Below are positions 1 through 48,520 of a DNA stretch of 48,520 nt, in pieces. This stretch comes from a virus (taxonomy: Duplodnaviria > Heunggongvirae > Uroviricota > Caudoviricetes): IMG/VR virus record IMGVR_UViG_2563366838_000005. One strand, 5' to 3'. The position numbers and the translations under genes are program-made. The notes beneath the pieces were generated by a model that saw nothing but the letters and a program-made list of their open reading frames with translations, was not told where the DNA came from and did no database searches. How positions within the stretch are numbered: position 1 is the first letter of the stretch; each line of letters starts with the position of its first letter.

Positions 1-95
1 ATTCTCATCTGGAGAAAACAACATACATCCAGACGTATGCGCAGCTTATGCGGTTGCGTAATGGTGGCAGCCTGAAATCAAATCTGTATGAGTCG
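1..95. repeat. Terminal direct overlap: bases 1-95 are identical to 48426-48520, indicating a circular or circularly assembled molecule with a unique length of about 48425 bp
   Basis: Exact 95-nt identity between window start and window end, read directly from the sequence. Confidence 0.9.
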
Positions 96-782
96 TTGAT
101 CCTCCCGATCATTGCCAAGACGCCAAGAGGAATTGATTTTGGTTCGGGGCAGGGAGACTACGCGCGAATGCTCAGGGCAAAGGGATATAACCTGCATGAT
201 CTCGAGCTTTTCCGCCGTAAGGGCGCTGGAAACACTCTGGATAGGGCCGCAACAAACCGGATGATTGATACGCTGGTGGACGACTTAAAAACGCGAGGGC
301 GTTACGACTACGTGATTTGCGATAGCGTTTTGAACTCGGTCGATAGTGTCGAGGCTGAATGGTCCGTTCTGACGGTTCTGAAAGGCCTGTGTAAAGCTGG
401 TGGGTCAATATTCTTTTCTGGCCGTAGCCGTGGAGAACTGGAAACAGTCCTGAAGCAAACACAAGCGGCGAGTTCCAAAAGCCGGCTTTATTTTATTGAT
501 CATGACGGTTTTACCGCGTTGTACCGGAAGGGGCACTGGTTTTACCAGAAGTTTCACTCTGATGAGGAAGTGAAGCAGTTGTGTCGTGTACATGGTTTCA
601 GGATTAAGCGGTCAATATTCAACTGTAAGAGCTGGTATTTGCACGTCATTAACGATGATTCCCTTAGTTGGGCGAGTCTGGAGAAAGCTGTTCGTTTTGA
701 GTTTGAGTTGCCGTTGCCTGGTGGTTCAACAATCGGACGATCTGATGATGTGCTGGCGGCTTTCCGGCCGTTGATTAAGTAG
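1..782 (+). CDS. 3' portion of wrap-around gene: ParB-N-like domain fused to class I SAM-dependent methyltransferase (continues from 47834..48520; in-frame ATG at 48 is internal)
   Basis: Reading frame from ATG 47834 stays open to window end and is in phase with ORF 48..782; C-terminal part has GxGxG motif I (IDFGSGQG) and a YDYVICD motif II-like strand; no DPPY/NPPY motif seen. Confidence 0.65.
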   Translation, partial: SHLEKTTYIQTYAQLMRLRNGGSLKSNLYESLILPIIAKTPRGIDFGSGQGDYARMLRAKGYNLHDLELFRRKGAGNTLDRAATNRMIDTLVDDLKTRGRYDYVICDSVLNSVDSVEAEWSVLTVLKGLCKAGGSIFFSGRSRGELETVLKQTQAASSKSRLYFIDHDGFTALYRKGHWFYQKFHSDEEVKQLCRVHGFRIKRSIFNCKSWYLHVINDDSLSWASLEKAVRFEFELPLPGGSTIGRSDDVLAAFRPLIK

Positions 783-798
783 TGTGTAGGAGGCGCTG

Positions 799-1518
799 GT
801 GGCTGACAGAATTGAGATAAAGATGGATTTTTCTTCTCAGGATATTCAACGACAACTCCAGCGCCTTGAAGAACGCGAATTGCCGTTCGCAATGGCGCTT
901 GCGGCAACCAGAACGGCAAAGGCTTCTCAGGCTGCGATTAAGAATGAAATTAATCGGGTATTTGACAGGCCCACGCCGTGGATTCAGAACTCTACTTACG
1001 TTTTGGCCGCAAAGAAGAGTGATCCTACAGCCATTGTGTATGCTCGTGAATGGGGAGGAACGCCAGCCCCTGTAACGTTGACTCCGCAAATCGAAGGTGG
1101 CCAACGACAGTACAAACGCTCAGAAGGGGCGCTAAGGGCTGGTGGATATTTGCCTAACGGCTGGCAGATTGCTCCTGGTCCCGGCGCAAAGCTGGACAAA
1201 TACGGGAATATTTCGCGGGGGCAATTACAGCAGGTCTTATCTGGCCTAAGAGTTCAGCGAGATGCGCATCAAAATCGCCGTCAGGGCAAGCCTACGGAGT
1301 TTTTTGTTGTTCGACCTGGTACAAGTAACCCGCTTCAACCAGGCGTCTGGCAGCGCGTTGGGCGGCGTCCTACGTTGATCCTTACGTTTATCCAGCAACC
1401 TAACTATTCGCAGCGTCTTGATTGGCATGGCGTGGCGCTGCGTGCTGGTGAGGATGCGTTTGCTGATGAAGTCACAAAGGCTATTGATGACATTCTTTCC
1501 AAGACCTTCTCTCGTTAA
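799..1518 (+). CDS. Hypothetical protein (239 aa), tightly linked downstream of the ParB-methyltransferase fusion
   Basis: Long ORF starting 17 nt after the previous stop; no motif I recognise. Confidence 0.5.
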   Translation: MADRIEIKMDFSSQDIQRQLQRLEERELPFAMALAATRTAKASQAAIKNEINRVFDRPTPWIQNSTYVLAAKKSDPTAIVYAREWGGTPAPVTLTPQIEGGQRQYKRSEGALRAGGYLPNGWQIAPGPGAKLDKYGNISRGQLQQVLSGLRVQRDAHQNRRQGKPTEFFVVRPGTSNPLQPGVWQRVGRRPTLILTFIQQPNYSQRLDWHGVALRAGEDAFADEVTKAIDDILSKTFSR

Positions 1519-1692
1519 TCATCGTGTGGTTGATGGTGTTGTTATGCAGAGTGTATTCACTGTGTTCTGTAGCGTCGCTCGCTGGCTGTCTGTGGGGGAG
1601 CACGAGCATCGTTTCATCGTCCGGCAGAATTGGGTCCTTCTGGACAAAAGCGTTGGATGCGGGTCATTCGAACCCCGATGTTCGGCTAGCTA

Positions 1693-2075
1693 AACGTGAA
1701 AAAAGTTAGGTTAAAAGTTGCGGTAAAAGAAATTTACTCATCTCATTGAAAAATATCGGGAAAACGTGATTTTTTGCTGTATTTGTGCTGGTAAAAAGAA
1801 AGTAGAAAATTTTCTTTTAGATCATCAAGATACGCGCAGATCTTTAACCAATGTGATGTTGTTCTGATAAAAATCGTTATAAATCATGCAAATACATCCA
1901 ATCTTTTAACCAAAACACCATCTCAAGATCCTTTTTACTTATAAAAACTTAATAAAATCAGATGATTATGCTGGTTTGTGTGATTTTTTATGAGTAAAAA
2001 GATCGTCATTTTTCTCTTTTAGTATCAATAAGTTAAACAGTTTTCTTTAACCTGTTGTGTTATGGCGGTTAAAAA
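1693..2075. promoter_or_regulatory. AT-rich ORF-free region upstream of packaging genes; candidate packaging site and/or late promoter
   Basis: About 380 bp with no ORF; three copies of TCTT(T)TAACC (near 1842, 1902, 2045) and four GATC sites. Confidence 0.3.
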
Positions 2076-2666
2076 ATGGCTCTAAAAATCGAATATTTAC
2101 CAGTCGGTAAGCTGCTCAGATACGCCAAAAATTCACGGACTCATTCAGATGAGCAGGTTGAACAGTTGGTGAACAGTATCCGTGAGTTCGGTTTCACTAA
2201 TCCTGTGCTGATCGATGAAAAGAATGAACTGATTGCGGGGCATGGTCGGCTTGCAGCAGCCGAAATTCTGGAAATGGATAAAGTTCCGGCGATTCGGTTG
2301 AGTAACCTTTCTGAAAAACAGAAGAAGGCTTACAGGATTGCAGATAACAAGCTGGCCTTAAATGCTGGCTGGGATATGCAGCTTCTGGCCGAAGAAGTCA
2401 AAGAGTTAATGGATGATGATTTTGATATTGATCTGCTTGGGTTTAATGATGCAGAGCTTGACGAAATGTTAAGCGATGAACAGCCGCAGGAAGAAGACGA
2501 TAATTCTTCCCCTGTTGTTCAAATTAAGTACCTGGCTATTGATAAAGAACGTATTCCCGCGACGGATATGGAAATTGCATTGTTGCTGGATGTTTATCGT
2601 CAGTACCACGACGCGCATGAAACGCATGAGGGATTTGTTCAGTATCTTGCTAATGGTTGCAAGTAA
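2076..2666 (+). CDS. ParB-like nuclease domain protein
   Basis: KNSRTHS and GHGRLAAA motifs typical of ParB N-terminal domain; paralog of 47211..47834. Confidence 0.75.
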   Translation: MALKIEYLPVGKLLRYAKNSRTHSDEQVEQLVNSIREFGFTNPVLIDEKNELIAGHGRLAAAEILEMDKVPAIRLSNLSEKQKKAYRIADNKLALNAGWDMQLLAEEVKELMDDDFDIDLLGFNDAELDEMLSDEQPQEEDDNSSPVVQIKYLAIDKERIPATDMEIALLLDVYRQYHDAHETHEGFVQYLANGCK

Positions 2667-3217
2667 TGGCCATCGTCAGTAAGTCAGAGTTTGCTCGCCG
2701 GAAAGGTATTTCTCCGGCAATGGTTACGAAGCTCTGTCGTTCCGGTCGCATTCCAGTGCTGAAAAGCGGCAAGCTGGATTTTGATAAAGCCAGTGCGGCT
2801 TATGAAGCGAGCCGACAGGTTGGTCGTGAGGTATCTGCTGAAAATGGAAAAAGAGGGCATGGGATATCTTCGGAACAACCAGAGTTACCCGCTGATGATG
2901 CCGGATTAGCTGGTGGTACTTCCGGTGTTGCGGTGCAATTCAACAAGGCTAAGACCGCAGAAAAAATTTATCAGGCAAAGCTGAAACGCCTTGAATTTGA
3001 AGAAAAGGAAGGCTCTCTCATCGCTAAAGATGCGGTCAGGGATGATGCATTTCTGGCAGCTAATGAATTGCGTAGCCGCTTATTTAGTATTGCTCCAAGA
3101 GCAGCTCCCCGTTGTGAAGGCAAAACAGCCAGGGAGATCGAACGCATTATTGAAGACGAGATTAATTTTGCGCTTCAGGCGCTCCAGGAATCCCGATTTA
3201 TTAAGCAGGAAGAATAA
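2657..3217 (+). CDS. Putative terminase small subunit
   Basis: 186 aa ORF directly upstream of large terminase with N-terminal HTH-like segment; assigned by position. Confidence 0.5.
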   Translation: MQVMAIVSKSEFARRKGISPAMVTKLCRSGRIPVLKSGKLDFDKASAAYEASRQVGREVSAENGKRGHGISSEQPELPADDAGLAGGTSGVAVQFNKAKTAEKIYQAKLKRLEFEEKEGSLIAKDAVRDDAFLAANELRSRLFSIAPRAAPRCEGKTAREIERIIEDEINFALQALQESRFIKQEE

Positions 3218-3222
3218 ACCTC

Positions 3223-5079
3223 ATGGGCGAAACAGTATGGAGCACCGCTTTTTTCCGTGCGCTTCGCCCTAAATCACGGCTAACTGTTTCCGAATGGGCT
3301 GATAAGTATCGTCATGTAGCGCCGGGAACGTCTCCAGAGCCAGGGCCGTGGCGTACAAGCCGAGTGCCATATTTGCGTGAACCAATGGATGTTATTGGTG
3401 ACGCTGATACAGAAACAGTAGTGATGCAATGTAGCTCGCAAATTGGTAAATCCGAATTACAGCTAAATGTTATGGGTTACTTTGCAGATCAGGAGCCATC
3501 TCCTCAGTTGATGATTTATCCAACGGTAGAGGCGGCTGAGGCTTTTTCAAAAGAGCGTATTGATCCGACGTTCAAATATTCCCCTGGTTTGAAACACAAG
3601 CTGCATGAAGGGAAAGAGGGGCGCGGTGCAGCCAAAAAGTCCAGCACGACTATACGTATGAAGCATTACGCTGGTGGATATATAGCACTTGTTGGTGCTA
3701 ATTCCCCAGCAGGTCTTGCATCCAGGCCAATTCGAATACTGTTAGCTGATGAGATTGATCGTTACGGTGTGACGCAGGAGGGCGACCCACTAAAACTAGG
3801 TATTCAGCGTACTACCAACTTTCATAATCGTAAGAAAGTTTTTGTTTCTACTCCTGTTTTGGAGGAAACGAGCAAAATCCACAAGTGGTTTAAGCTCTCC
3901 GATCAGCGTTACTACCATGTTCCTTGCCCATGTTGTGGCACCATGCAGGTGATGAAATGGTCGCAAGTCAGATGGGATAAGAGCGATTCAGGTGAGGCGT
4001 TACCGGAAACGGCCAGATATGAGTGCTGTGAGTGCGGCGGGATTATGCGCGGATCTGGTAAACCAGACGTTGATTGGTTGGCGAAGGGGGTATGGATAGC
4101 TGAACATACTGGAGTTAAAGGTATTGTTGGTTTTCATATTAACAGTCTTTACTCCCCGTGGGTTGCATTGTCAGAGCTGGTTGAAGAATTTACGGAAGCA
4201 ACCAGAAACCGCGATAAAAATGGATTAATGGAGTTTATTAACCTTAAGCTGGGTGAGCCATGGAAAGAGGATGCTAAAGACGATATCGATCCTGAATACT
4301 TGTTGCAACGCAGAATAAGGTTTGAAGAGTTTTTACCAGATGATGTTTTATTGTTAAGTGCTGGTGTTGACGTACAGGACACGTATTTAGTTTGTGAATT
4401 GGTCGGTTGGGGAAAAGGTAAGGAGTCATGGGGGATAGAATATAAAATATTCCCAGGTGATCCCGCACAAGATGTTGTCTGGAAACAACTTGATGAATAC
4501 TTACTCCGTAGCTGGTCATTCCGTGACGGTCGAAAATTACAGATTTCTTCCGTTTGTATTGACTCTGGTGGGCATTTTACGACAGAGGTATATCGCTTTA
4601 CTAAGCCGAGAGAATCAAGGCGAATATACTCTATCAGGGGGCGTGGTGGGGTAGGTTTACCATTTATAGGAAAGCCAAGTAATAATAACCGTGTGGGTGC
4701 TATGTTGTTTAATTTGGGGGTTGATGATGGTAAAGGGACCATCATGGCAAGAATTAAACTACATGATCCTGGTCCTGGTTATATGCATTTCCCATTAGAT
4801 TCTGACAGAGGATATGATACCGAATACTTTAAAGGATTATTATCAGAGAAGAAAATATTTGAATATAAAAATGGGCAGACAAAAGAAAAGTGGGTGAAAG
4901 TCTACGAGCGTAACGAGCCTCTTGATTGCCGTAACTATGCAACTGCCGCGATGGAAATTCTGAACCCTAATTTTAACTGGCTTGCCGAACAGGAAATGCG
5001 AGGTAATGTGTATGTGCAGAACTCGTCAGGTATACGTAGAAGACGCCGTAGAGTTATAAGTAAAGGCGTAACCATATAG
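3223..5079 (+). CDS. Terminase large subunit, lambda gpA-like
   Basis: 618 aa; size and sequence character match the GpA terminase family; followed by gpW-like and portal genes. Confidence 0.85.
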   Translation: MGETVWSTAFFRALRPKSRLTVSEWADKYRHVAPGTSPEPGPWRTSRVPYLREPMDVIGDADTETVVMQCSSQIGKSELQLNVMGYFADQEPSPQLMIYPTVEAAEAFSKERIDPTFKYSPGLKHKLHEGKEGRGAAKKSSTTIRMKHYAGGYIALVGANSPAGLASRPIRILLADEIDRYGVTQEGDPLKLGIQRTTNFHNRKKVFVSTPVLEETSKIHKWFKLSDQRYYHVPCPCCGTMQVMKWSQVRWDKSDSGEALPETARYECCECGGIMRGSGKPDVDWLAKGVWIAEHTGVKGIVGFHINSLYSPWVALSELVEEFTEATRNRDKNGLMEFINLKLGEPWKEDAKDDIDPEYLLQRRIRFEEFLPDDVLLLSAGVDVQDTYLVCELVGWGKGKESWGIEYKIFPGDPAQDVVWKQLDEYLLRSWSFRDGRKLQISSVCIDSGGHFTTEVYRFTKPRESRRIYSIRGRGGVGLPFIGKPSNNNRVGAMLFNLGVDDGKGTIMARIKLHDPGPGYMHFPLDSDRGYDTEYFKGLLSEKKIFEYKNGQTKEKWVKVYERNEPLDCRNYATAAMEILNPNFNWLAEQEMRGNVYVQNSSGIRRRRRRVISKGVTI

Positions 5080-5090
5080 AGGAAATATAA

Positions 5091-5330
5091 ATGAACAATG
5101 AAGCATTTTCTCTGACTGAAGCCAGAGAGATGTTATCTGTCTGGCGGGAAGCATATCGCGCTATTGCTATTGGCGGTCAGTCATATAAATTTGGTACGCG
5201 GCAGTTAACTCGTGCGGATTTATCAGAAGTCAGAAAAGAGATGGATTACTGGCGTAATGAAGTAGAAAGATTATCAGCAGGTATACGCCGAGGCCCACGA
5301 ATTAAACGAGTGGTGATAAGAGATTTATGA
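5091..5330 (+). CDS. Head-tail joining protein, gpW-like
   Basis: 79 aa between terminase and portal; C-terminal RRGP motif as in lambda W. Confidence 0.6.
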   Translation: MNNEAFSLTEAREMLSVWREAYRAIAIGGQSYKFGTRQLTRADLSEVRKEMDYWRNEVERLSAGIRRGPRIKRVVIRDL

Positions 5331-6901
5331 ATATTCTTGATCGAGTTATTGCGCCGTTTTCACCTCAGAGGGCATTAAATCGAGCTTTGGCAAGAAAACG
5401 GTTAGAAGCACTTGAAGGTATTAATAACCTTGGATATTCACGTCATGGTGCAAGCACTCATAAAAAATCATTAAGGGGTTGGTTTAGTAAAGCTGGTTCT
5501 CCTGATGATGATATTGTTAAAAATATAGATAAATTGCGTGAGCGTTCTCGTGATCTCTTCATGGGAAACCCGCTATCGGTTGGCGCAATAAAAACTATCA
5601 GGACAAACGTTGTTGGTTCCGGTTTAAAACTAAATGCGAACATTGATGCCGATTTCTTGGGGATGACGCAGGAAGAAGCGCGAGCATGGGAAAAGCATGT
5701 TGAGCGTGAGTTTAGATTATGGGCTGATTCTCCAAATTGTGATGCATCAAGAATGTGTACTTTTGGACAATTGCAATCATTGGTCCAAATATCTGCGTTA
5801 ACATCTGGCGATATATTTGCTGCGCTACCAGTTATTAAGCGTAAGGGTGTTATATATGATTTGTGCGTCTATTTAATTGAAGGTGATCGTGTTTGCAATC
5901 CAGAGGATCGTTTTATACCAAATCTTTACGGTGGCGTAGAGGTTGGTGAATTTAGCGAGCCTGTGGCGTACTGGGTTGCAAAACATCACCCAGCCGGGAC
6001 TTCTGGTTTTGTAACCCGCAAGTGGGAACGTATTCCCGCATATGGGAGTAAAACAGGAAGAAGAAATATTCTGCATGTCATGCAGGATTTTGAAAGGCCT
6101 GGGCAACGTCGTGGCGTTCCTGTCCTTGCTCCTGTTATTGAAGCATTGAAGCAGTTAGGACGATACACCGATGCTGAATTGGTTGCTGCGGTTGTGTCAG
6201 GGATGTTTACTGTCTTTATTAAAACAGACGCTCCTGATGGACCAGTCGGTGAATCGGGTATCCCTCAGTACGAGCAGATCGATAACCATGATGATAACAC
6301 CCAAGAAATGGGGAATGGCTCCATAGTAAGTTTGGGTGAAGGTGAGTCGATAGATACAGCAAATCCCGGGCGACCAAATACGGCATTTGATGGTTTTGTT
6401 GTCGCCATATGCCGTCAAATTGGGGCTGCTTTAGAACTCCCTTACGAACTCTTGGTAAAGCATTTTACAGCAAGTTATAGCGCAAGCAGGGCCGCATTAC
6501 TTGAAGCCTGGAAAATGTTCCGTATGCGACGTGACTGGATGGTTCAGTCATTTTGCCAACCGATCTATGAGGAATGGTTGGCCGAAGCCGTTGCTAAAGG
6601 TCGTGTTATTGCCCCTGGTTTTTTTTATGGGCCTGAATATCGCGCTGCATGGAGTGGCGCTCAATGGTATGGCCCATCACAAGGCCAATTAGATCCCCTT
6701 AAAGAAGTCAAAGCTGCAAAACTGCGTGTTGAGGAAACATTCTCTACCCGTGAAAAGGAAGCGGCTGAAATGTCAGGTCTTAACTGGGAAGAAACCGCAC
6801 AAATTTGTGGCAGAGAAGAGAATGCTCGCCGTGAGTTGGGGCTGATTACGCCTCCTGTTTCTGAGGTAAATGAACAAAATATGGAGACAGATGATGCCTA
6901 A
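5327..6901 (+). CDS. Portal protein, lambda gpB-like
   Basis: 524 aa ORF in the canonical position after gpW; overlapping start/stop with neighbours. Confidence 0.8.
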   Translation: MNILDRVIAPFSPQRALNRALARKRLEALEGINNLGYSRHGASTHKKSLRGWFSKAGSPDDDIVKNIDKLRERSRDLFMGNPLSVGAIKTIRTNVVGSGLKLNANIDADFLGMTQEEARAWEKHVEREFRLWADSPNCDASRMCTFGQLQSLVQISALTSGDIFAALPVIKRKGVIYDLCVYLIEGDRVCNPEDRFIPNLYGGVEVGEFSEPVAYWVAKHHPAGTSGFVTRKWERIPAYGSKTGRRNILHVMQDFERPGQRRGVPVLAPVIEALKQLGRYTDAELVAAVVSGMFTVFIKTDAPDGPVGESGIPQYEQIDNHDDNTQEMGNGSIVSLGEGESIDTANPGRPNTAFDGFVVAICRQIGAALELPYELLVKHFTASYSASRAALLEAWKMFRMRRDWMVQSFCQPIYEEWLAEAVAKGRVIAPGFFYGPEYRAAWSGAQWYGPSQGQLDPLKEVKAAKLRVEETFSTREKEAAEMSGLNWEETAQICGREENARRELGLITPPVSEVNEQNMETDDA

Positions 6902-7958
6902 TTGGTGGGAAATAAAAAATAGCACGGGTGAAGATGACTCTCCGGCTGAACTTTTAATCTACGGATATATTGGCGAATTTGATGAGGTTTCTTCTTCTGA
7001 CATAGTTAATAAATTAAAGGATATATCATCAAATGCTATCAACGTAAAAATTAATAGTTATGGTGGTTCTGTTTTTACTGCTCAAGCTATTCTTTCTTCA
7101 TTAAAACGTCATAAGGCTAATATTACTGTTTATATTGATGGTATTGCTGCATCGGCTGCAACCATTATTGCAATGGCAGGTGATAAAGTTGTTATCCCAT
7201 CTAATGCTATGATGATGATCCATAATCCGTGGACATTTGCTGCTGGTGATGCGGATGAACTACGTGATATTGCTGAGATGATGGATAAGATACGAGATAG
7301 TATTTTATCTGCATATAAGGAGAAAACAGGGCTTTCTGAGGATAAATTAATTGAACTAATGGATCAGGAAACATGGCTAAATGCAGAAGAGGCTGTAGAG
7401 CTTGGATTTGCTGACGAAGTTGAAAAACCAATGCGCTTATCCGCTTCTATAAAGGAAGGGATGCTTTCGCTCAATGGAATAACTTTTGAAGCATCAAGGT
7501 TTTCAAAATTACCTGATTCGCTCGCAAAGTTGCCACAAAATAAAAATGAATTATCTACTGAATTAAATGAACAAAATGAGGACGATGTTGTGACTCTTGA
7601 TGAATTAAAAAATAAACATCCAGAATTATACAATCAGGTTTTTAATGCTGGTAAAGACGAGGGCGTTAAATCAGAACGCGAGCGCATTGAAACAATCGAG
7701 AATAGCGTGATTCCAGGTCATGACGACCTGGTTAAGAATGCAAAATTCAAAACGGGAGTTTCTGCGGCTGAACTTGCTTTGGAAATTATGAATGCAGAGC
7801 GAGCGCGTAACAAAAACTTTCTTAATCAACGGCAAGAAGACGCAAATGAGGTGAATGATTCAGTTGATGTTAATCAACCAGAAAACAACGGAGATAAACA
7901 AGCTGAAGTAGTAAAAAATGTTATTGGGTCAGTATTTAAAAACCGCGATAAAAATTAA
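6870..7958 (+). CDS. Prohead serine protease, ClpP-like, with C-terminal scaffold-like region (alternative start 6891)
   Basis: YGGSV...GIAASAA...MMMIHNPW motifs typical of ClpP-family phage proteases; acidic coiled C-terminus. Confidence 0.75.
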   Translation: MNKIWRQMMPNWWEIKNSTGEDDSPAELLIYGYIGEFDEVSSSDIVNKLKDISSNAINVKINSYGGSVFTAQAILSSLKRHKANITVYIDGIAASAATIIAMAGDKVVIPSNAMMMIHNPWTFAAGDADELRDIAEMMDKIRDSILSAYKEKTGLSEDKLIELMDQETWLNAEEAVELGFADEVEKPMRLSASIKEGMLSLNGITFEASRFSKLPDSLAKLPQNKNELSTELNEQNEDDVVTLDELKNKHPELYNQVFNAGKDEGVKSERERIETIENSVIPGHDDLVKNAKFKTGVSAAELALEIMNAERARNKNFLNQRQEDANEVNDSVDVNQPENNGDKQAEVVKNVIGSVFKNRDKN

Positions 7959-7967
7959 GGTGAGTTT

Positions 7968-8351: not shown

Positions 8352-8371
8352 TATAAAGAGGTCGTATTTTT

Positions 8372-37151: not shown

Positions 37152-37200
37152 AAGTGTCATTTTGAGCTGTTTTGATGGTGTGTAGACATCGGGAACATCG

Positions 37201-38388: not shown

Positions 38389-38399
38389 CAGTAAGCCTA

Positions 38400-38419
38400 C
38401 GGCGGGATGTCTCCCGCCG
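38400..38419 (+). terminator. Hairpin terminator followed by AT-rich iteron-like motif
   Basis: cggcggga tgtc tcccgccg, 8 bp stem. Confidence 0.45.
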
Positions 38420-38444
38420 TATATAGAATTATATATTTATATAA

Positions 38445-41285: not shown

Positions 41286-41641
41286 GTATGGCTTTTGTAT
41301 CAATCATAACTGGTGGCAGAGGTCGCAAGCGTGACACGGCAGGAATATCCGTTAGATATTCAAAATCAGGATCTGTGCAGTGCTATATCGGAGTTGATGT
41401 CAGATCGAACAGTCGATTTATTTTCGTTGAGTTGGATGAGGAAAACAGGCAGATCAGGGTGATGCCAACCTCGGATGAAAAGGGTGCAAAGATGTCTGGT
41501 GCAAGCAGAGGGACATTCTCAGTAACTAAAAAGTTTGGGGATGTGGTTATACCTTCAGGACATAAAAAAGCTTTCATCGAGCTGGAAAAAAATGCTGATG
41601 GTTGGTGGTACGGTAAATATCAAGAAGGGGATACGGCATGA
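41282..41641 (+). CDS. Hypothetical protein
   Basis: 119 aa ORF. Confidence 0.4.
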   Translation: MSMAFVSIITGGRGRKRDTAGISVRYSKSGSVQCYIGVDVRSNSRFIFVELDEENRQIRVMPTSDEKGAKMSGASRGTFSVTKKFGDVVIPSGHKKAFIELEKNADGWWYGKYQEGDTA

Positions 41642-42012
41642 TCACTATTACCAAAGAGCGACTGCTGACAATCAAGCAGTGGCGCGAAACATACGGACCT
41701 GATAGCAACGTTGTACTGCCAGCAGAAGAAGCGGAAGAACTGGCACGAATTGCACTTGCATCGCTGGAAGCAGAACCGGTGGCGTGGATGCGTGATGACG
41801 CAGATGGTCGTGAGTATAACGCTCGCAATGAATTTTCTGGTGGAGGGGGAGGAGTTCCACTCTACGCCACCCCTCCAGTGCCAGTAGTACCGGAAGAAAA
41901 ACCAATGCCTAATCCTCTTAGCATGTACGCGGTTGATGCTGTTGCCGCTATTGCAGAGGTGAGAGGCTGGAATGCCTGCCGCGCGGCTATGCTTCATGGG
42001 AAAGGAAAGTGA
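41638..42012 (+). CDS. Hypothetical protein, paralogous to 42014..42289
   Basis: Shared N-terminal TKE(R/Q)L..I...RE and (E/A)PVAW motifs. Confidence 0.4.
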   Translation: MITITKERLLTIKQWRETYGPDSNVVLPAEEAEELARIALASLEAEPVAWMRDDADGREYNARNEFSGGGGGVPLYATPPVPVVPEEKPMPNPLSMYAVDAVAAIAEVRGWNACRAAMLHGKGK

Positions 42013-42013
42013 T

Positions 42014-42289
42014 ATGGCTACTTTTACCAAAGAGCAATTGATTGCCCATATTCGTGAACGTAAGGAAGCGCGCCAGAGAATGTTGGATACGGTAACTATT
42101 AACCCCGGATTTCGTGAATATCTTGAAAGAGAGCTTGCTACAGATGAAATTGCACTGGCATCCCTGGCATCTGCACCTGTTGCATGGCTAGTTGGAGGGC
42201 GTTTGTTCACAACTGAGATAGCTGCGGGGATGTACGCTAGTGAGGTGAGGAAAGCAGTTAAGCCGCTATTCTTTTCTGCACTACTGTGA
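42014..42289 (+). CDS. Hypothetical protein, paralog of 41638..42012
   Basis: ATG 42014 after AGGAAAG; shared motifs with preceding gene. Confidence 0.4.
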   Translation: MATFTKEQLIAHIRERKEARQRMLDTVTINPGFREYLERELATDEIALASLASAPVAWLVGGRLFTTEIAAGMYASEVRKAVKPLFFSALL

Positions 42290-42477: not shown

Positions 42478-42873
42478 ATGTCAGCAGAACCAATTTCCGG
42501 TACGGCCGTTGCTGCTGGTGGCCTGATGGGTGCCAGCGTTTTTGGTATTGCAACTGGTATTGATTACGGCGTTGTATTCGGGGCATTTGCTGGCGCTGTT
42601 TTCTATGTTGCTACAGCGGTGAATATTAGCCGTCTCAAGCTGATTGGCTATTTCTTTACATCGTTCATTGTTGGAGTGATTGGAGCGCCGTTAGTTGGCT
42701 CATTTCTTGCCAAATGGACCAGCTACAACGATCGTCCTCTGGATGCGCTTGGTGCGGTTATTGTGGCTGCATTGACCATTAAAATCCTCACGTTCGTAAA
42801 CAGCCAGGATCTCGGTAGCATCTTTGGAATGCTTTCCCGCTTACGTGGAGGGGGTTCAAATGGTAAGCAGTGA
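42478..42873 (+). CDS. Putative holin (multi-TM membrane protein)
   Basis: 131 aa from ATG 42478 with GAGGA SD; several hydrophobic helices; first gene of lysis cassette. Confidence 0.55.
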   Translation: MSAEPISGTAVAAGGLMGASVFGIATGIDYGVVFGAFAGAVFYVATAVNISRLKLIGYFFTSFIVGVIGAPLVGSFLAKWTSYNDRPLDALGAVIVAALTIKILTFVNSQDLGSIFGMLSRLRGGGSNGKQ

Positions 42874-43156
42874 CCCGTCAGCACTGATTAATGCGGTGCT
42901 TTGCACAGTAATAGTAATGGCGCTGATGCTTTATCGACGGAAAGACTCCAGGCATCGTCCATTTGTTTCCTTTCTGGCTTATATCTACGTCATTGTATAC
43001 GCCAATGTTCCCTTCCGTTATGTGTTCGGTCTTTATCAAGAATCCCACTGGCTGGTGGTTATTGGAAATCTGATTATCTGCATCGTTGTTCTGTATTTCA
43101 GGGGCAATCTGGCGCGGATAGTTGACGCATTAGGGTTTAATCATGACCAAAGATGA
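42860..43156 (+). CDS. Lysis-associated membrane protein (second holin or antiholin candidate)
   Basis: 98 aa from ATG 42860; three hydrophobic segments; overlaps endolysin start. Confidence 0.45.
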   Translation: MVSSDPSALINAVLCTVIVMALMLYRRKDSRHRPFVSFLAYIYVIVYANVPFRYVFGLYQESHWLVVIGNLIICIVVLYFRGNLARIVDALGFNHDQR

Positions 43157-43685
43157 GATTTTTAACAGCATTCTTGGAAAAGAGGGCGGCTATGTGGATC
43201 ACCCTGACGACAAGGGAGGCCCAACAAAGTGGGGCATTACTCAGAATACTGCCCGTGCTCACGGATACCGTGGCGATATGCGAGATCTGACGCGAGAACA
43301 GGCTCTGATGATTCTTGAAGGTGATTATTGGTATGGGCCTCGTTTTGACCAGGTGGCGCAATTTTCCCCTGATATTGCGGCTGAGATGTGCGATACGGGC
43401 GTCAACATGGGGCCGACTGTGGCTACGAAGATGCTTCAACGTTGGCTGAATGTTTTCAACCGTGGCGGGAAGTTGTATCCAGATATGGATGTGGATGGGC
43501 GAATCGGCCCGCGCACCATTGCGGCATTACGTGCTTATCTTGGGAATCGGGGAAAAGACGGCGAACGGGTAATGCTGACGGCCCTGAACTGTACGCAGGG
43601 CGACCGTTATCTGGACCTGGCGGAGAAACGCGAAGCAAATGAGTCGTTTGTCTATGGCTGGATGAAAGAGCGAGTGGTGGTATGA
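43143..43685 (+). CDS. Endolysin, GH108-like N-terminal domain with peptidoglycan-binding C-terminal domain
   Basis: 180 aa; N-terminal EGGYVDHPDDKGGPTKWGIT motif characteristic of GH108 lysozymes. Confidence 0.75.
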   Translation: MTKDEIFNSILGKEGGYVDHPDDKGGPTKWGITQNTARAHGYRGDMRDLTREQALMILEGDYWYGPRFDQVAQFSPDIAAEMCDTGVNMGPTVATKMLQRWLNVFNRGGKLYPDMDVDGRIGPRTIAALRAYLGNRGKDGERVMLTALNCTQGDRYLDLAEKREANESFVYGWMKERVVV

Positions 43686-43960
43686 CTGGTTTGAAAGCCG
43701 TTTTGTCATTTATCGGCACCGTTATATTGGTTGCATTCGGTGCGTTTGGTTTTGGTCGTATGAAGGGGCGAGAAAAGGCCGAAGATGAAGCTGAAAAGCA
43801 GCGCATTAATGAGAATGCAGCCGCCGTAAAAGCCACTGCGGAGCGGCGTATAGAAGTGACAAAAGAGGTGGGCAATGTACAGCAGAGTGTTAACCATATG
43901 GCTGATGACGATGTTGATCGCGAGCTGCGGGAGTCGTGGAAGCGTCCCGGTGGTGGTTGA
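43682..43960 (+). CDS. i-spanin (Rz-like)
   Basis: 92 aa; N-terminal TM helix, charged coiled region; start overlaps endolysin stop. Confidence 0.6.
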   Translation: MTGLKAVLSFIGTVILVAFGAFGFGRMKGREKAEDEAEKQRINENAAAVKATAERRIEVTKEVGNVQQSVNHMADDDVDRELRESWKRPGGG

Positions 43961-44084
43961 TACCGCCTGTGATTGGGTAAAGCCCATCTACCTGACTGAT
44001 CACGATATCGATGTTATGGACCGCCAGACAAAGAAAGATATTCTGGCTCATAACAGGGCATGGGAAATCAACTGCCCCAAGTAA
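43875..44084 (+). CDS. o-spanin (Rz1-like lipoprotein)
   Basis: 69 aa; lipobox LIASC; starts in an alternate frame inside the i-spanin gene. Confidence 0.6.
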   Translation: MYSRVLTIWLMTMLIASCGSRGSVPVVVDTACDWVKPIYLTDHDIDVMDRQTKKDILAHNRAWEINCPK

Positions 44085-44253: not shown

Positions 44254-44329
44254 GGCCCCTTAGCTCAGTGGTTAGAGCAGGCGACTCATAATCGCACGGT
44301 CATCGGTTCAAATCCGGTAGGGGCCACCA
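44254..44329 (+). tRNA. tRNA with CAU anticodon, most like tRNA-Ile2 (lysidine type); could be scored as tRNA-Met
   Basis: 76 nt cloverleaf with 7 bp acceptor stem, D-arm GCTC/GAGC, anticodon loop CTCATAA, T-loop TTCAAAT, encoded CCA; resembles E. coli ileX as recalled. Confidence 0.8.
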
Positions 44330-44637: not shown

Positions 44638-45225
44638 ATGGAGGCAATTGCATTGTTTAATCTGATTTATGCAGATCCCCCCTGGGAATACAAAGATAAG
44701 TGTAAGGATGGGAATCGTGGAGCTGGTTTTAAGTATCCAACGATGAAAGCTGAGGATATTGCTCGTATTCCTGTCTGGCAGCTTGCTAATCCTGAATCGT
44801 GTTTGTTGGCCATGTGGTGGGTTCCGACTCAGCCAGAAGAAGCGTTGCTGGTGGTGAAAGCATGGGGATTCAGGCTTATGACCATGAAGGGCTTCACATG
44901 GAACAAATGTGGTAGCCGACAACCAGATAAGCTGGTGATGGGGATGGGGCATATGACTCGTGCAAACAGTGAAGATTGCTTGTTTGCGGTAAAAGGCAAA
45001 TTGCCGACCCGCCTTGATGCGGGGATCATTCAGTCGTTTACATCGCCTCGTCTGGAGCATTCTCGGAAGCCTGATGTGGTTCGTGACAAGCTGGTAAGGC
45101 TGTTAGGTGATGTTCCTCGTATTGAGCTGTTTGCTCGCGGTGATTTACCTGATGGTTGGCATGGCTGGGGCAACCAGTGCAATGGAAGTATCCAGTTGCA
45201 TGATGCTCTCTGGCAAGTGGTATAG
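44638..45225 (+). CDS. DNA adenine methyltransferase, MT-A70-like
   Basis: 195 aa; IYADPPWEY catalytic motif near N-terminus. Confidence 0.7.
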   Translation: MEAIALFNLIYADPPWEYKDKCKDGNRGAGFKYPTMKAEDIARIPVWQLANPESCLLAMWWVPTQPEEALLVVKAWGFRLMTMKGFTWNKCGSRQPDKLVMGMGHMTRANSEDCLFAVKGKLPTRLDAGIIQSFTSPRLEHSRKPDVVRDKLVRLLGDVPRIELFARGDLPDGWHGWGNQCNGSIQLHDALWQVV

Positions 45226-45336
45226 AATTATATAATTATAGATTTATATAAAAGTGCTTTACAGGTGGGAAAAAATTTCCTATGGTTATACCCGAAACCG
45301 AGCGATACCCGCCCTGGTTAAACCGGAGATAACCCG
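45221..45336 (+). promoter_or_regulatory. Conserved promoter/leader block, copy 3
   Basis: Near-identical to copies 1 and 2 (TTTACA-17 nt-TATGGT variant), ends at ATG 45337. Confidence 0.55.
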
Positions 45337-45606
45337 ATGAAAGTACAAGACCGTGAAGTAGTAAAAAACCTCCTGCAATACCTGACCTCAAAAAACCTGA
45401 CTGGCAGCGTTGAGTTCCGTGAAGCGTTAAAACATTTCAACGTCACTACGGTTTATCGTTGGGAAAACAAACATTCTGAAAGACCGTATGTGGTGGATGT
45501 TTTTGCGCCTGATATTGAGTGCGGTTTTGAGCGTCATTCGTTCAAGGAGAAACATTCTGCTGATTTTTTTTGTGAGGTTGTATGTGCGGCAGGAGATGAT
45601 GAGTGA
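45337..45606 (+). CDS. Hypothetical protein (89 aa) driven by conserved promoter copy 3
   Basis: ORF begins at end of conserved block. Confidence 0.5.
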   Translation: MKVQDREVVKNLLQYLTSKNLTGSVEFREALKHFNVTTVYRWENKHSERPYVVDVFAPDIECGFERHSFKEKHSADFFCEVVCAAGDDE

Positions 45607-45803
45607 TGCGTATTTCCTTCAAACGTGCGACTGAGCAGCAACGCAAAGAGTTCCTGGCTGATGATGTAGCGGCCGTTTATGACCTCATGAAAGAGGTTGT
45701 GGAATCAGGGAACTACACGGCGGCAAAGATGCTTAAACTGCAATTCTTGCTGGGCGACCTGAAATACAAATCCGAAGTTGTCGCCGGACGACGCGAGCAT
45801 TAA
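45603..45803 (+). CDS. Hypothetical protein
   Basis: 66 aa ORF overlapping the previous stop, followed by terminator. Confidence 0.4.
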   Translation: MMRISFKRATEQQRKEFLADDVAAVYDLMKEVVESGNYTAAKMLKLQFLLGDLKYKSEVVAGRREH

Positions 45804-45826
45804 ACCGTAACGATAACGAACAACGA

Positions 45827-45853
45827 GCCTCGGCAATTGCCGGGGCTTTTTTA
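45827..45853 (+). terminator. Rho-independent terminator
   Basis: 8 bp stem gcctcggc/gccggggc with one G-U pair, loop aatt, then T6. Confidence 0.6.
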
Positions 45854-45877
45854 CATCCAGACAAAGGAGAACATGGG

Positions 45878-46177
45878 ATGCCTTCGACAAGCACCAAAAA
45901 AGAAATGGCGGTTAGTGATGTGCTTTACGCGCTTTCGACTATATGTGACGGAGCAATGATGAGGATGAAAGTCCTCCATGAAGCATACGGAAAAAGTCAC
46001 GATGAGGCAGCTAAAGAGTGCCTGAATGAGATTGTGGACTTCATTGATAGCCATCGTTCAGTTATATCGCGTCAACCGACAGCGTCGTCCATCACGATTA
46101 GCGCACCGGTTATCAATATATCAGTAACTGCGGCATGTAAATCAGCAGCGGAAGATGATCGTGCTTATGCCGAGTGA
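45878..46177 (+). CDS. Hypothetical protein
   Basis: 99 aa ORF. Confidence 0.4.
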   Translation: MPSTSTKKEMAVSDVLYALSTICDGAMMRMKVLHEAYGKSHDEAAKECLNEIVDFIDSHRSVISRQPTASSITISAPVINISVTAACKSAAEDDRAYAE

Positions 46178-46367
46178 TTTGTTCTGGTTTCCGCTTCCAA
46201 TAAGAGATTTGTTGGTATTTCTAGCTGGCGCTTACGTCTGGAGAAAAGCGAAAGACACCTCGTTATCTTTGAGGTTTGTCTTAGCTATATCGGTAGGAAC
46301 CGCGCTGGGGACGGCGTATCTCTTGACATTACTGGAGATATTCATTGAAGAATGGATAGTTTCATGA
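46155..46367 (+). CDS. Small membrane protein
   Basis: 70 aa with two hydrophobic helices. Confidence 0.4.
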   Translation: MIVLMPSDLFWFPLPIRDLLVFLAGAYVWRKAKDTSLSLRFVLAISVGTALGTAYLLTLLEIFIEEWIVS

Positions 46368-46516
46368 ATGGTGTTGGCATTTTTCTGATGGTTGTGGCCG
46401 TGTGTTTTTGTATCTCGCTGGTGGTTATCGCTGGTGTCCTGTGGCGCATCTTAGTGGCGCAGAGGGCTTTTCGGCTTAAGCGGGAGCAAATGCGCCTTGA
46501 TTTATATCGAAAGTAA
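46364..46516 (+). CDS. Candidate small membrane peptide (50 aa)
   Basis: ATG 46364 overlapping previous stop; hydrophobic N-terminus and basic C-terminus; terminator follows. Confidence 0.3.
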   Translation: MNGVGIFLMVVAVCFCISLVVIAGVLWRILVAQRAFRLKREQMRLDLYRK

Positions 46517-46524
46517 CTCTTACA

Positions 46525-46554
46525 GCCTCGCGGTGTCGCGGGGCTTTTTATTTT
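46525..46554 (+). terminator. Rho-independent terminator
   Basis: 8 bp stem gcctcgcg/cgcggggc, loop gtgt, then T-run. Confidence 0.6.
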
Positions 46555-46565
46555 CAGGTGATGTT

Positions 46566-46976
46566 ATGGAAAAGAAAGAAGATAAACCGATTGCCATTGG
46601 TGCAGAGTCTGTTCCGTTTAAGTTTGAATTATCCCAACTGGTAACAATGCGTATCAGTGAAGAGTGGGGAGAAGTTCAAGCCCGTGCTCAGTATGCAAAT
46701 GGCGAAAACCAGTATCTGATTCACTATCAGGCGGCTGATGGCCGTGCTACCACAGAGTGGTTCGGTGAGTCGATGCTGATTGCGATGGAGGATAAACGTC
46801 ATCCTGGCTGCCCTGTTTTTGCCTGTATTGATTTGCCAGAAGGCGCGGTACTTGAAGACGACAAAGAAGAATGGTCGCCTGATGGCGAACTTGTCATTAC
46901 CGGAATCGTGGATGGTAAGCCGGAATATTCCCGTATTGAGGTAAATAACGGCCACATCTGTTTGATCCCTGCGTAA
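46566..46976 (+). CDS. Hypothetical protein
   Basis: 136 aa from ATG 46566 with AGGTG SD. Confidence 0.45.
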   Translation: MEKKEDKPIAIGAESVPFKFELSQLVTMRISEEWGEVQARAQYANGENQYLIHYQAADGRATTEWFGESMLIAMEDKRHPGCPVFACIDLPEGAVLEDDKEEWSPDGELVITGIVDGKPEYSRIEVNNGHICLIPA

Positions 46977-47210
46977 CGCATTACAGCAGCTCTTGTGCTA
47001 ATCAGGGGCTGCGATAATGCGCAAACCAAAGCTGCCTCATTAACTCCTGCTCGCTGTGGAGTTAATGCTGGTGGCTTTTTTATTACTGGAAGGTGGGCGA
47101 CCGCCGTCAGTTGCGACCTGACGACAGTCATTCATACCCACAGGGTGCCGTGGATACAAACCGAGGCCCACTTGCTTGCACAAGCGAGGGGATTTTAGCG
47201 GATAAACGGC

Positions 47211-47834
47211 ATGACAAAACATCTTAATGTGGTTTCTTTACCACTTTCTGTGTTGATTGGTTATGAAAAGAACGCTCGCACACACTCCGTGGAGCAGGTA
47301 GATCAGATTGTTGCCAGCATACAGGAGTACGGATGGACTAATCCGATCCTGATAGACGAGAACAACGTTGTAATTGCTGGTCATGGTCGAATTGCTGCGG
47401 CCACTCAGTTGGGGATGGATGATGTTCCCTGCATTGTTCTGGCTGGGCTAACGGAGAATCAGAAGAAGGCATATCGTCTGGCCGACAACCGTATTCCGCT
47501 GAATGCTGGTTGGGATGAAGAGTTGTTAAGCGCGGAGCTTGCAGATCTTGCGGCCGATGATTTTGCTCTGGACTCAATTGGTTTTACTCAGCGCGAACTG
47601 GATAACTTATTGAGTGCGGCAGTCTACGATGACACAGAGGGTATGGATATCCCATTTGAGAAGGATGAGGCCAAATCAGGCGTAAAAGTTCAGTACCTGT
47701 CATTTGGAGGTCATAAAATCCCGGCAACGGATGAGGAAGCGGATCGTTTTGACTGCGCGGTGTCTCGTTATGTTGATGATAATGGCAGCTATATCGGATT
47801 TGTATCCGCATTGCTGGCTGGGGAGGTGTGCTGA
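47211..47834 (+). CDS. ParB-like nuclease domain protein (paralog of 2076..2666)
   Basis: KNARTHS and GHGRIAAA motifs; stop overlaps the start of the next gene. Confidence 0.75.
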   Translation: MTKHLNVVSLPLSVLIGYEKNARTHSVEQVDQIVASIQEYGWTNPILIDENNVVIAGHGRIAAATQLGMDDVPCIVLAGLTENQKKAYRLADNRIPLNAGWDEELLSAELADLAADDFALDSIGFTQRELDNLLSAAVYDDTEGMDIPFEKDEAKSGVKVQYLSFGGHKIPATDEEADRFDCAVSRYVDDNGSYIGFVSALLAGEVC

Positions 47835-48520
47835 TGCTTCACCTCAATTACGACATAACGCACCTACGCGGCGCGGAATATAACCCGCGTTTTATCGGTG
47901 AGGATGATCTTGCGAGGCTGGCGGAAAGCGTCAGGGAGCTGGGGCTTGTGAAGCCATTGATAGTGCGCGGCGATTTGCTGGTGGCGGGACACCAAAGGAC
48001 GAAGGCGCTACGTAAGTTGGGAATAACGCGTGCTGCGGTGTATGTGTTGCCCTGTGAAACGACGGTATACGACGAAGTACGGTTTAACCAACTGCATAAC
48101 GGAACGGATTTTGATAGCGGAGATGAGCGTTGCAGGGTGTCCGGTCTGGAAGATAAGCATGGTTTTGTTCAGGTATCGGCAAGCCAGATCTCAGGCAATA
48201 TGCGCGCGAAAATGGCATATGTTCGAAAGAACATAGCGGAACTGGTTATCAAGTATGGTCCGTGGGGTGGTTGTGTTGCTACTCAGTCTGGTGAGGTTAT
48301 TCACTGTGCTCAGTATGCATTAGCAGCGAAAATGACGCGCACACCGCTAACGGTGTTTGTGATCCCTGATGTTGAGAAGGAAAAATACCAAAGTTATCTG
48401 AATAAAACTTATGGTGTATTTGAGTATTCTCATCTGGAGAAAACAACATACATCCAGACGTATGCGCAGCTTATGCGGTTGCGTAATGGTGGCAGCCTGA
48501 AATCAAATCTGTATGAGTCG
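47834..48520 (+). CDS. 5' portion of wrap-around gene: ParB-N-like domain of the ParB/methyltransferase fusion (runs off window end, continues at 1..782)
   Basis: ATG 47834 overlapping previous TGA; GHQRTKAL ParB-like motif; no stop before window end; frame continuous with 48..782. Confidence 0.65.
   Translation, partial: MLHLNYDITHLRGAEYNPRFIGEDDLARLAESVRELGLVKPLIVRGDLLVAGHQRTKALRKLGITRAAVYVLPCETTVYDEVRFNQLHNGTDFDSGDERCRVSGLEDKHGFVQVSASQISGNMRAKMAYVRKNIAELVIKYGPWGGCVATQSGEVIHCAQYALAAKMTRTPLTVFVIPDVEKEKYQSYLNKTYGVFEYSHLEKTTYIQTYAQLMRLRNGGSLKSNLYES

Follow-up and report, generated by a model that had tools for sequence, protein, structure and literature searches.

Phage P1 is the prototype of the circular phage-plasmids, and the features of P1 with which comparison is made below are established knowledge. 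Ten phage-plasmid types are distinguished in the current typing scheme, among which the N15 type spans 40-66 kb (PMC12977533). Here we analyse IMG/VR virus record IMGVR_UViG_2563366838_000005, a stretch of 48,520 nucleotides (nt) from a tailed phage (Caudoviricetes), which is referred to below as the window. Like P1, N15 and SSU5, the element in the window is a phage-plasmid: it bears a virion, packaging and lysis gene set together with plasmid replication and partition genes, and it has no integration module. We consider it highly probable that the window holds a complete temperate phage with a contractile tail, which in the prophage state persists as a circular low-copy plasmid. The element is a further isolate of a tight Escherichia family that is already well represented in sequence databases and that lies outside the ten named types (AB_1, cp32, N15, P1_1, P1_2, pCAV, pKpn, pMT1, pSLy3 and SSU5_pHCM2). 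At 48 kb it falls outside the size ranges of all of them save N15, and N15 is ruled out because there is no protelomerase. Pfeifer et al. (2021) may have counted the family within their heterogeneous VP882 community.

The window opens and closes with exactly the same 95 bases (1-95 and 48426-48520), and the 40-mer with which the window starts occurs nowhere else in it. The terminal duplicate (1..95) is read as the assembly overlap that closes the molecule; after one copy is dropped, the circle measures 48,425 bp with 44.8% G+C. An open frame of 457 amino acids (aa) with ParB_N and methyltransferase domains spans the junction (47834..48425, then 1..782), and the junction sequence is unbroken both in the closed plasmid pECO-b75 (positions 20414 to 20415 of the record) and in Yersinia phage vB_YpM_39 (47366 to 47367). 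Because the overlap lies in non-repeat coding DNA and the junction is unbroken in two independent records, it is best explained as a circular path in the assembly graph, not as an artefact of a longer contig. A preliminary description of the sequence had likewise closed the molecule on the 95-bp identity, and the contrary case that it named, an overlap produced by a longer contig, is contradicted by the same join in an independent closed plasmid and a phage genome.

About 58 Escherichia coli plasmids of 47-50 kb and the Yersinia phages vB_YpM_39, vB_YpM_41 and vB_YpM_44 (OR545053-55) match the element at 98-99% identity over 85-91% of its length. Other named members of the family are pECO-b75 (NZ_CP009861), the 48,488-bp plasmid of E. 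coli ATCC 25922 (CP009073) and the partial Escherichia phage vB_EcoM-613R2. The structural half (1-24000) is 98.6-99.1% identical to the 47-50 kb E. coli plasmids over 96% of its length and 98.7% identical to the three Yersinia phages, and the accessory half matches these plasmid and phage records block by block. The circle as a whole aligns over 91% to pECO-b75 and over 85% to vB_YpM_39, in segments that are mostly 96-99% identical; it differs from these relatives in mosaic accessory segments that make up ~9-15% of the circle. Among the 70 proteins of vB_YpM_39, 55 are found full-length at 90% identity or more in the window; these include RepA, HigBA, CI, ParA with its partner, the products of the four lysis genes and those of the 23 head and tail genes as far as the fibre. 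The genes for RepA, Par, HigBA and CI are the same in all three Yersinia phages, which were deposited as isolates on Y. pestis. RepA is 98.5% identical in amino acid sequence to that of the deposited family phages, and CI, ParA and the ParA partner are 100% identical.

A 17-kb core (3223-20465) is present in 72 of 5,426 RefSeq complete E. coli genomes (~1.3%), at 92 places on plasmids and one on a chromosome, and the identity of the structural module is 99.3% over 17.2 kb, where the family is defined by at least 95% nucleotide identity together with the same RepA, CI and operators. Each of the ~70 distinct carrier records listed (of 72) is 31-94 kb long. These near-identical closed plasmids bear out the extrachromosomal prophage that had been proposed from the sequence. 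Similarly, ~59 plasmids in PLSDB match at 95% identity or more, RepA occurs at or above the same identity in 59 plasmids, and the CI-operator region is found in 58 PLSDB plasmids at 97-100% identity, all of the pECO-b75-type family and all typed as non-mobilisable; these 58 plasmids share a single immunity type. The plasmids come from humans, animals and the environment. A literature search by phage names, plasmid names and accessions returned no paper naming or characterising this family, and the Yersinia pseudolysogenic phage HQ103, considered as a possible relative, turned out to be an unrelated P2-like phage. We also observed that strain ATCC 25922 ('Seattle 1946') carries a family member of which one deposit, CP032086 (94,204 bp), is a head-to-tail dimer. 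Insertion sequences (IS) are present in some relatives (IS1203 in the terminase gene of NZ_CP173475 and IS21 in NZ_CP032259), and shortened family records of 31-39 kb occur.

The packaging and head module (2076..10925, plus strand, assigned by Pfam) is full-length and 98-100% identical in amino acid sequence to that of vB_YpM_39. It starts with a ParB_N protein (2076-2666) and a putative small terminase (2666-3217), which are followed by the large terminase TerL (3223-5079; GpA_ATPase, E = 7e-76; GpA_nuclease, E = 1e-84), a DUF6148 protein in the gpW position (5091-5330), a lambda-family portal (5327-6901; Phage_portal_2, E = 7e-101), a ClpP-type protease (6894-7958; CLP_protease, E = 4e-32, with a marginal S49 match), a decoration-like protein (7968-8351; HDPD, E = 0.002, below the cut-off), capsid protein E (8372-9415; Phage_cap_E, E = 1.5e-55) and, downstream of the capsid gene, four connector genes, all on the plus strand. 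Among 50,697 phage records the best relative of the capsid protein outside its own family is 46.6% identical. The preliminary description had read the head as gpA/W/B/C/D/E-like; the gpA terminase, gpB portal and gpE capsid stand, whereas the gpW position is taken by the DUF6148 protein, the protease is of ClpP type and the gpD match lies below the cut-off.

A 12-nt sequence upstream of this module, GGTCATTCGAAC (1662..1673, plus strand), is probably a lambda-like cohesive end (cos), as judged from the linear ends of two phage records. The vB_YpM_39 record starts with GGTCATTCGAAC followed by CCCGATG and ends in GGATGCG, and the vB_YpM_44 record starts with CCCGATG and ends in GGATGCG followed by GGTCATTCGAAC. 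Two linear records that differ just in which end bears the 12-mer show the pattern expected of a 12-nt cohesive end, and the gpA-type terminase downstream fits cohesive-end packaging. Between GGTCATTCGAAC and the packaging genes lies an AT-rich non-coding stretch of 400 bp.

The contractile tail module (10925..23875, plus strand, by Pfam) has the gene order sheath, tube, E chaperone, T (tape measure), X, D, V, U, W, J, I, H and G, where X is a small protein, D a gpD-like hub, V the spike and W of the gp25 type. Its families include Phage_tube (E = 3e-43), Phage_TAC_7, Phage_GPD, Phage_base_V, Phage_P2_GpU (E = 1.6e-21), Baseplate_J (E = 5e-53), Tail_P2_I (E = 5e-26) and Caudo_TAP (E = 2e-38), and the P2 families FII, E, U, D, V, W, J, I and G are represented, the matches of W and E being weak. 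The sheath has no Pfam match; it is 53.6% identical to a 'tail protein' at the sheath position of Vibrio phage phi 2. The tail order is Mu-like and the same as in phi 2, not the order of P2 (V-W-J-I-H-G ... FI-FII-E-T-U-D). The joining of a lambda-like head to a P2/Mu-type contractile tail, which had been described as a chimera, is indeed present; however, 21 colinear genes are common to the element and phi 2, so it is no fresh chimera, and as far as gene order and protein identity tell, head and tail form an old conserved module that this integrative Vibrio phage also has.

The tail fibre (20496-23300, plus strand) and the fibre assembly protein (23300-23875, plus strand) are of another kind. 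The fibre segment 21203-22636 is ~93% identical in nucleotides to P2-like phages and has 49-52% G+C versus ~38% in the adjoining tail genes, and the C-terminus of the fibre together with the assembly gene constitutes a P2-type H-G cassette that is ~90-93% identical in nucleotides to Peduovirus phages. The Yersinia phages have Hin and an invertible fibre cassette, whereas the window has the P2-type H-G cassette in place of the Hin-invertible one; the last 30 nt of hin (24025-24054) are all that remains of that gene in the window.

The lysis cassette (42478..44084, plus strand) comprises a holin (42478-42873; Phage_holin_8, E = 5e-36), a 3TM holin (42860-43156; Phage_holin_3_7, E = 1e-16), a GH108 endolysin (43143-43685; Glyco_hydro_108, E = 1.6e-25; PG_binding_3, E = 8e-26) and a spanin-like pair (43682-43960 and the overlapping 43875-44084), the second member of which has a lipobox LIASC read from the translation. 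Compared with vB_YpM_39, the head and tail genes (23) and the lysis genes (four) are all full-length, in line with the full virion and lysis set first noticed. Also in agreement with the preliminary description, neither integrase, serine recombinase, resolvase, transposase nor protelomerase was matched by Pfam, PHROGs or NCBIfam in ~90 open reading frames (ORFs). In a six-frame tblastn search, none of 12 recombinase-type probes (four transposases, two tyrosine integrases, two resolvases and one each of excisionase, plasmid tyrosine recombinase, Hin and protelomerase) scored better than E = 0.14.

The plasmid replicon region (24054..25470, plus strand) opens with a promoter-like site found by promoter scan (24054-24081) and a palindrome of the operator type treated below (24188-24202), followed by repA (ORF 24239-25219, plus strand; PF02387, E = 1.3e-43). 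RepA passes the profile NF040977 (RepA_IncFII_LM) with 231.5 bits at a cut-off of 70 and fails the incFII equivalog TIGR03474 with 78.6 bits at a cut-off of 446.9, and when aligned to genuine IncFII RepA over 39% of its length it is ~31% identical. The replicon had been called IncFII-like, which applies at the level of the superfamily (PF02387, NF040977) but not to IncFII proper. The closest RepA outside the family among the matches listed is at most 36% identical and belongs to an Enterobacter KPC plasmid; this plasmid was considered as a phage-plasmid and rejected, being an ordinary conjugative-type plasmid. Since the family profiles begin to match at residue 53-58 of the ORF and an ATG at 24371 has AGAG upstream of it, RepA probably starts at ATG 24371 and has 282 aa. 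The 113 nt ahead of this ATG, the repA leader, form two long hairpins (24246-24358); on the minus strand the folding energy is -68 kcal/mol (z = -8.8), with a terminator-like hairpin and a U run at the end, and the modelled element would suit a candidate countertranscript on the minus strand. A consensus DnaA box, TTATCCACA (25361-25369), lies 142 bp past repA, is unique in the window and is followed by an AT-rich origin-like stretch (25380-25470). A single match of this kind is at chance level (one or more in 38 of 100 shuffles), and its weight comes from its position.

The partition locus (32407..33480, minus strand) consists of parA (33352-32699, 217 aa, within an open frame 33367-32699; CbiA, ParA and MipZ families) and a gene for an 82-aa ParA partner (32655-32407). 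ParA belongs to the small Walker-type ATPases and weakly matches ParF of TP228 (chains 4dzz and 5u1g, 3e-4). The partner has no match in Pfam, NCBIfam or PDB sequences, and a Foldseek search with its model found nothing significant. In the single-sequence model residues 1-40 are disordered and basic and are followed by two helices, which is compatible with a ribbon-helix-helix protein. The ParAG partition proposed earlier is plausible: there is a ParA with a small partner, but similarity of the latter to ParG was detected neither by sequence nor by fold. Upstream of parA, AT-rich repeat arrays (33376-33407 and 33449-33480) are candidates for centromere and operator. The motif of these arrays, TATAGAWTTATATAA, in 8-bp units, has 22 occurrences within two mismatches in the window where 0.16 are expected. 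They cluster at 27804-27839, 32668-32682, 33376-33471, 37215-37247, 38422-38451, 44084-44114 and 45221-45261, seven intergenic sites directly upstream of genes, including parA and its partner, and a 33-nt exact repeat stands at 27807 and 37215. The TATAGAWTTATATAA arrays may represent a class of promoters or else, in the manner of omega of pSM19035, sites to which the small Par partner binds.

A type II toxin-antitoxin system (26682..27328, plus strand) is formed by a toxin gene (26682-27029; Gp49, PF05973, E = 2e-22) and a helix-turn-helix (HTH) antitoxin gene (27029-27328; HTH_3, E = 4e-10). The toxin gene precedes that of the antitoxin and the two abut at 27029, as in HigBA, so that the addiction system is correctly named HigBA in the preliminary description; the homologue of the toxin in pECO-b75 carries the RefSeq label RelE/ParE family toxin. 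Directly upstream of higB lies a dif/cer-like XerC-XerD site, GGTGCCGATAA-CGTCCA-TTATGTTAAAT (26579..26606, plus strand), with two mismatches to the arms of E. coli dif against a chance expectation of 0.01. This candidate multimer resolution site is identical in three relatives, pECO-b75 and two Yersinia phages. As the element encodes no recombinase, multimer resolution is most economically explained by the action of host XerCD on the dif-like site.

There is also a locus that looks like a timP/TimR type I toxin-antitoxin system (31603..32183), which would be a second addiction system beside HigBA and reproduces the published timP/TimR layout (PMC7667032). On the plus strand a timP/ryfA-like mRNA (31887-32183; Rfam ryfA, 141.8 bits, cut-off 80) contains a 40-aa hydrophobic ORF (32033-32155), and on the minus strand a candidate TimR-like RNA runs from about 31709 to 31603, with a promoter-like site at 31743-31716 and a terminator at ~31603-31634 that was seen by eye and is not in the terminator scan output. 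An 18-nt box at 31692-31709 repeats bases 31950-31967 of the 5' untranslated region (UTR), so that the minus-strand RNA would be complementary to the timP UTR.

The immunity region (33970..34800, minus strand) encodes a CI-like repressor (34626-33970; HTH_3, E = 4.5e-11; Peptidase_S24, E = 0.0018, below the cut-off), which is transcribed divergently from the early operon. The palindrome ACCAC-N5-GTGGT is present in four perfect and four one-mismatch copies, where 0.69 copies with at most one mismatch are expected by chance and no shuffle reached eight; from its distribution it is predicted to be the operator of the CI-like repressor. Two perfect copies (34664-34678 and 34767-34781) and an imperfect one (34745-34759) lie in the divergent control region. 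A third perfect copy (33913-33927) overlaps a TTGACA promoter for ORF 33877-33503, just downstream of cI and near par, and the fourth (24188-24202) lies between the promoter-like site and the repA leader. An operator-like site with one mismatch (31575-31589) stands upstream of the antirepressor operon. The remaining one-mismatch palindromes, at 16631, 21855 and 47240, are inside coding regions and are taken as chance. The four perfect operators are at the same positions in pECO-b75 and both Yersinia phages, and the palindrome is absent from three unrelated loci; the operators, like the Xer site, are identical in sequence between the window and its pECO-b75 and Yersinia phage relatives.

The antirepressor operon (29936..31589, minus strand) contains an IsrK-like RNA (31515-31442; Rfam isrK, 70.9 bits, cut-off 50), a C4 antisense RNA (31417-31330; Rfam C4, 81 bits, cut-off 45), an Ash/icd-like small ORF (31275(31371)-31084; Phage_ASH, E = 1e-5) and the antirepressor gene ant (31087-29936; ORF6N, E = 5e-20; Phage_pRha, E = 4e-12), whose product is 87% identical to Ant of the deposited phages. 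The arrangement is as in P1 immI and the Gifsy-1 IsrK-AnrP locus, here with a lambda-like main repressor. In a manual alignment the S24 motif of CI reads L-M-S-P-T versus S-M-x-P-T in LexA-type repressors, and the position of the catalytic Lys is Arg, so that CI seems to lack the S24 catalytic pair. A search for the LexA box CTGT-N8-ACAG gave a single match, inside a structural gene, and none near ant. These changes in the S24 motif and the lack of a LexA box near ant favour antirepressor-driven induction, and we tentatively suggest, with low certainty, that induction goes through the C4/IsrK-controlled antirepressor rather than through self-cleavage of the repressor. BLASTP of CI against the VP882 repressor and phmmer of its C-terminal domain against PDB found nothing.

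Several points weigh against a complete, functional phage-plasmid of the kind described here. Particle formation and plasmid upkeep of this very copy are read from its relatives, and its tail fibre is unlike that of the deposited phage isolates. The cos call depends on how two GenBank records were linearised, the proposed non-cleavage of CI is based on a manual motif alignment, and the ParG-like role of the 82-aa protein has neither a sequence nor a fold match behind it. The promoter scan found no promoter for the proposed repA countertranscript, Rfam CopA is absent around repA at the gathering threshold and at E <= 1 (chance-level matches alone), and no lytic replication function was identified in the window. 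Finally, one place in the 5,426 E. coli genomes was scored as chromosomal; it is not among the ~70 distinct records listed (of 72).

The alternative that survives best is that the element is a cryptic plasmid, i.e., a decaying or domesticated phage-plasmid of which this copy yields no infectious particles. Some relatives do bear insertion sequences in structural genes (IS1203 splitting the terminase gene of NZ_CP173475, and IS21 in NZ_CP032259) or are shortened to 31-39 kb, the fibre cassette of the window differs from that of the deposited isolates, and no paper was found that reports induction of this family. However, the window itself is free of frameshifts and IS elements; its 23 head and tail genes, lysis genes, CI and Ant are all full-length and mostly 98-100% identical to those of deposited phages (87% for Ant), and the replacement fibre and its assembly protein are intact and ~90-93% identical in nucleotides to working P2-like phages. 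Support for infectious particles comes only through the near-identical phages that were deposited as isolates with Y. pestis EV76 as host. A cryptic plasmid is thus improbable.

Much less credit is due to the idea that the element is an integrated prophage or part of a longer replicon, with the 95-bp overlap a repeat-caused assembly artefact. It is true that a terminal overlap alone is no proof of circularity and that one place was scored as chromosomal, but the overlap falls within coding DNA that is unique, and joining the ends yields an uninterrupted gene of 457 aa, the same junction is unbroken in independent closed plasmids and a phage genome, there is no integrase or att-type feature, and plasmid-sized records account for 92 of the 93 places. 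It is every bit as unlikely that the element, instead of being of a stable kind, arose recently and by accident as a cointegrate between an integrative prophage and an ordinary IncF-type plasmid: although the morphogenesis module is also found in the integrase-bearing phi 2, the RepA family is typical of conjugative plasmids and the G+C content differs between modules, the combination of RepA, CI, Par and virion genes recurs at 97-100% identity in 58 plasmids and three deposited phages, no plasmid RepA outside the family, among the matches listed in the spread sample, is more than 36% identical to RepA of the element, and repressor operators wired into the replicon and par regions point to long co-evolution.

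For the phage-plasmid that we favour, the following life cycle can be proposed. The virion DNA would be linear with 12-nt cohesive ends, cut at cos (1662-1673) by the gpA-type terminase, and would circularise after injection. RepA would start theta replication at an origin just downstream of repA, with the DnaA box and AT-rich DNA, and a structured countertranscript across the repA leader would limit RepA synthesis. ParA and its 82-aa partner, acting on the AT-rich repeat arrays, would segregate the copies, and host XerCD would resolve dimers at the dif-like site, which would account for the lack of a recombinase gene in the element. Segregants without the plasmid would be killed by HigB and probably by the TimP-like membrane toxin. 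Lysogeny would be held by the CI-like repressor bound to ACCAC-N5-GTGGT at the early promoter, the antirepressor operon, the par side and upstream of repA, and induction would most likely proceed via the C4/IsrK-controlled antirepressor.

How the element replicates in the lytic cycle may also be read from these operators. The early operon (34801-42289) holds no replication initiator, helicase, loader or primase recognisable by Pfam or PHROGs, and six-frame tblastn probes for lambdoid O protein, DnaC, VP882 Rep and SSB found nothing. An operator upstream of repA together with the lack of a separate lytic replication gene suggests that the plasmid replicon may be derepressed for lytic replication. 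In such a scheme loss of the repressor would free repA from copy control, with the antirepressor operon and the par-side promoter co-regulated by the same repressor. That a single replicon of the IncFII superfamily serves both plasmid upkeep and lytic replication, switched by the phage repressor, is a speculative proposal to which we give a rather low probability. If the wiring is true, with two toxin systems, an antirepressor under RNA control, repressor operators at repA and a host Xer site that stands in for an own recombinase, the element would offer a compact model of the merging of phage and plasmid backbone into a single regulatory unit.

The remaining genes lie mostly in the early operon and next to the packaging region. 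The early operon (34801..42289, plus strand, by Pfam and PHROGs) starts with a protein that has a possible Cro-like N-terminus, as judged by eye, and includes a Ref-like nuclease (36037-36441), a DUF1064 protein (36438-36770), Ead/Ea22-like proteins and many proteins of unassigned family; its only large protein, a DUF3560 protein (37321-38388), partially matches a PHROG labelled primase. Adjoining the lysis cassette is a tRNA-Met gene with anticodon CAT (44254..44329, plus strand; ARAGORN; Rfam tRNA, 67 bits), which is annotated in vB_YpM_39 and vB_YpM_44 too. Late-proximal accessory genes (44638..48425, plus strand) include small unknowns, an MT-A70 methyltransferase (44638-45225; MT-A70, E = 3e-22), a ParB_N protein (47211-47834) and the junction-spanning ParB_N-methyltransferase fusion (47834-48425, then 1-782; Methyltransf_23 and ParB_N). 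The packaging region is thus flanked by three proteins with ParB_N domains, one of them the methyltransferase fusion, and by the MT-A70 methyltransferase, and phi 2 likewise has a ParB_N/methylase gene at the head of its packaging module. Segment 29217-29954 is absent from pECO-b75 and vB_YpM_39. It contains an ORF for a 211-aa membrane protein with two N-terminal membrane helices (29266-29901), which has no match in Pfam, NCBIfam or PADLOC and could be a moron or superinfection-exclusion gene. A PADLOC defence scan of ten unknown proteins found nothing.

In the main, the outcome is a correct classification, and it indicates that a phage-plasmid can be recognised from raw sequence by a first-pass reader. 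The weight of the family lies in its presence in the quality-control strain ATCC 25922, in ~1.3% of the complete genomes of E. coli and among phages deposited as isolates on Yersinia pestis; being outside the ten types recognised by typing tools, it is probably undercounted in surveys.

Among known systems, Vibrio phage phi 2 (KJ545483) shares with the element a colinear set of 21 genes for packaging, head and tail, which starts at the ParB_N/methylase gene, extends to tail protein I and is 27-66% identical in amino acid sequence. It has two integrases, an excisionase, an O-like replication protein and DnaC, and it has no RepA, Par or toxin-antitoxin genes; it is thus an integrative counterpart. 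The myovirus phage-plasmids of the VP882/HAP-1 group are similar to the element in their P2-family tail proteins and ParA, but VP882 differs in its head, has a linear prophage with a protelomerase and encodes a large Rep protein. VP882 was also considered as the closest relative and rejected, with 9 weak protein matches alone at 20-42% identity.

The replicon resembles those of the IncFII plasmids R1 and R100 in the RepA superfamily; the candidate antisense-type structure over the repA leader and the origin-like DnaA box and AT-rich DNA downstream of repA would be further likenesses. Unlike them, the window has no CopA match and no CopB, and it has a phage-type operator where R1 has a CopB-controlled promoter. 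The partition locus is comparable to the type Ib systems ParF-ParG of TP228 and delta-omega of pSM19035, in which a small Walker ParA is also followed by a protein of ~80 aa with a disordered basic N-terminus; the modelled C-terminal strand-helix-helix-like segment of the partner and the short repeat arrays upstream of the operon would be further likenesses. The partner in the window, however, has no sequence or fold match to ParG or omega, and the repeat unit is an AT-rich 8-mer with arrays at six further intergenic sites.

With respect to P1, the virion genes are unrelated, and the element is half the size, would package from cos whereas P1 uses pac and headful packaging, has neither Cre/lox (a host Xer site is proposed instead) nor an iteron RepA or RepL, and uses a lambda-type HTH protein as repressor. 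What the element and P1 have in common is the phage-plasmid lifestyle, dispersed repressor operators, a Ref-like nuclease, and a C4 antisense RNA that precedes an icd-like ORF and an antirepressor gene.

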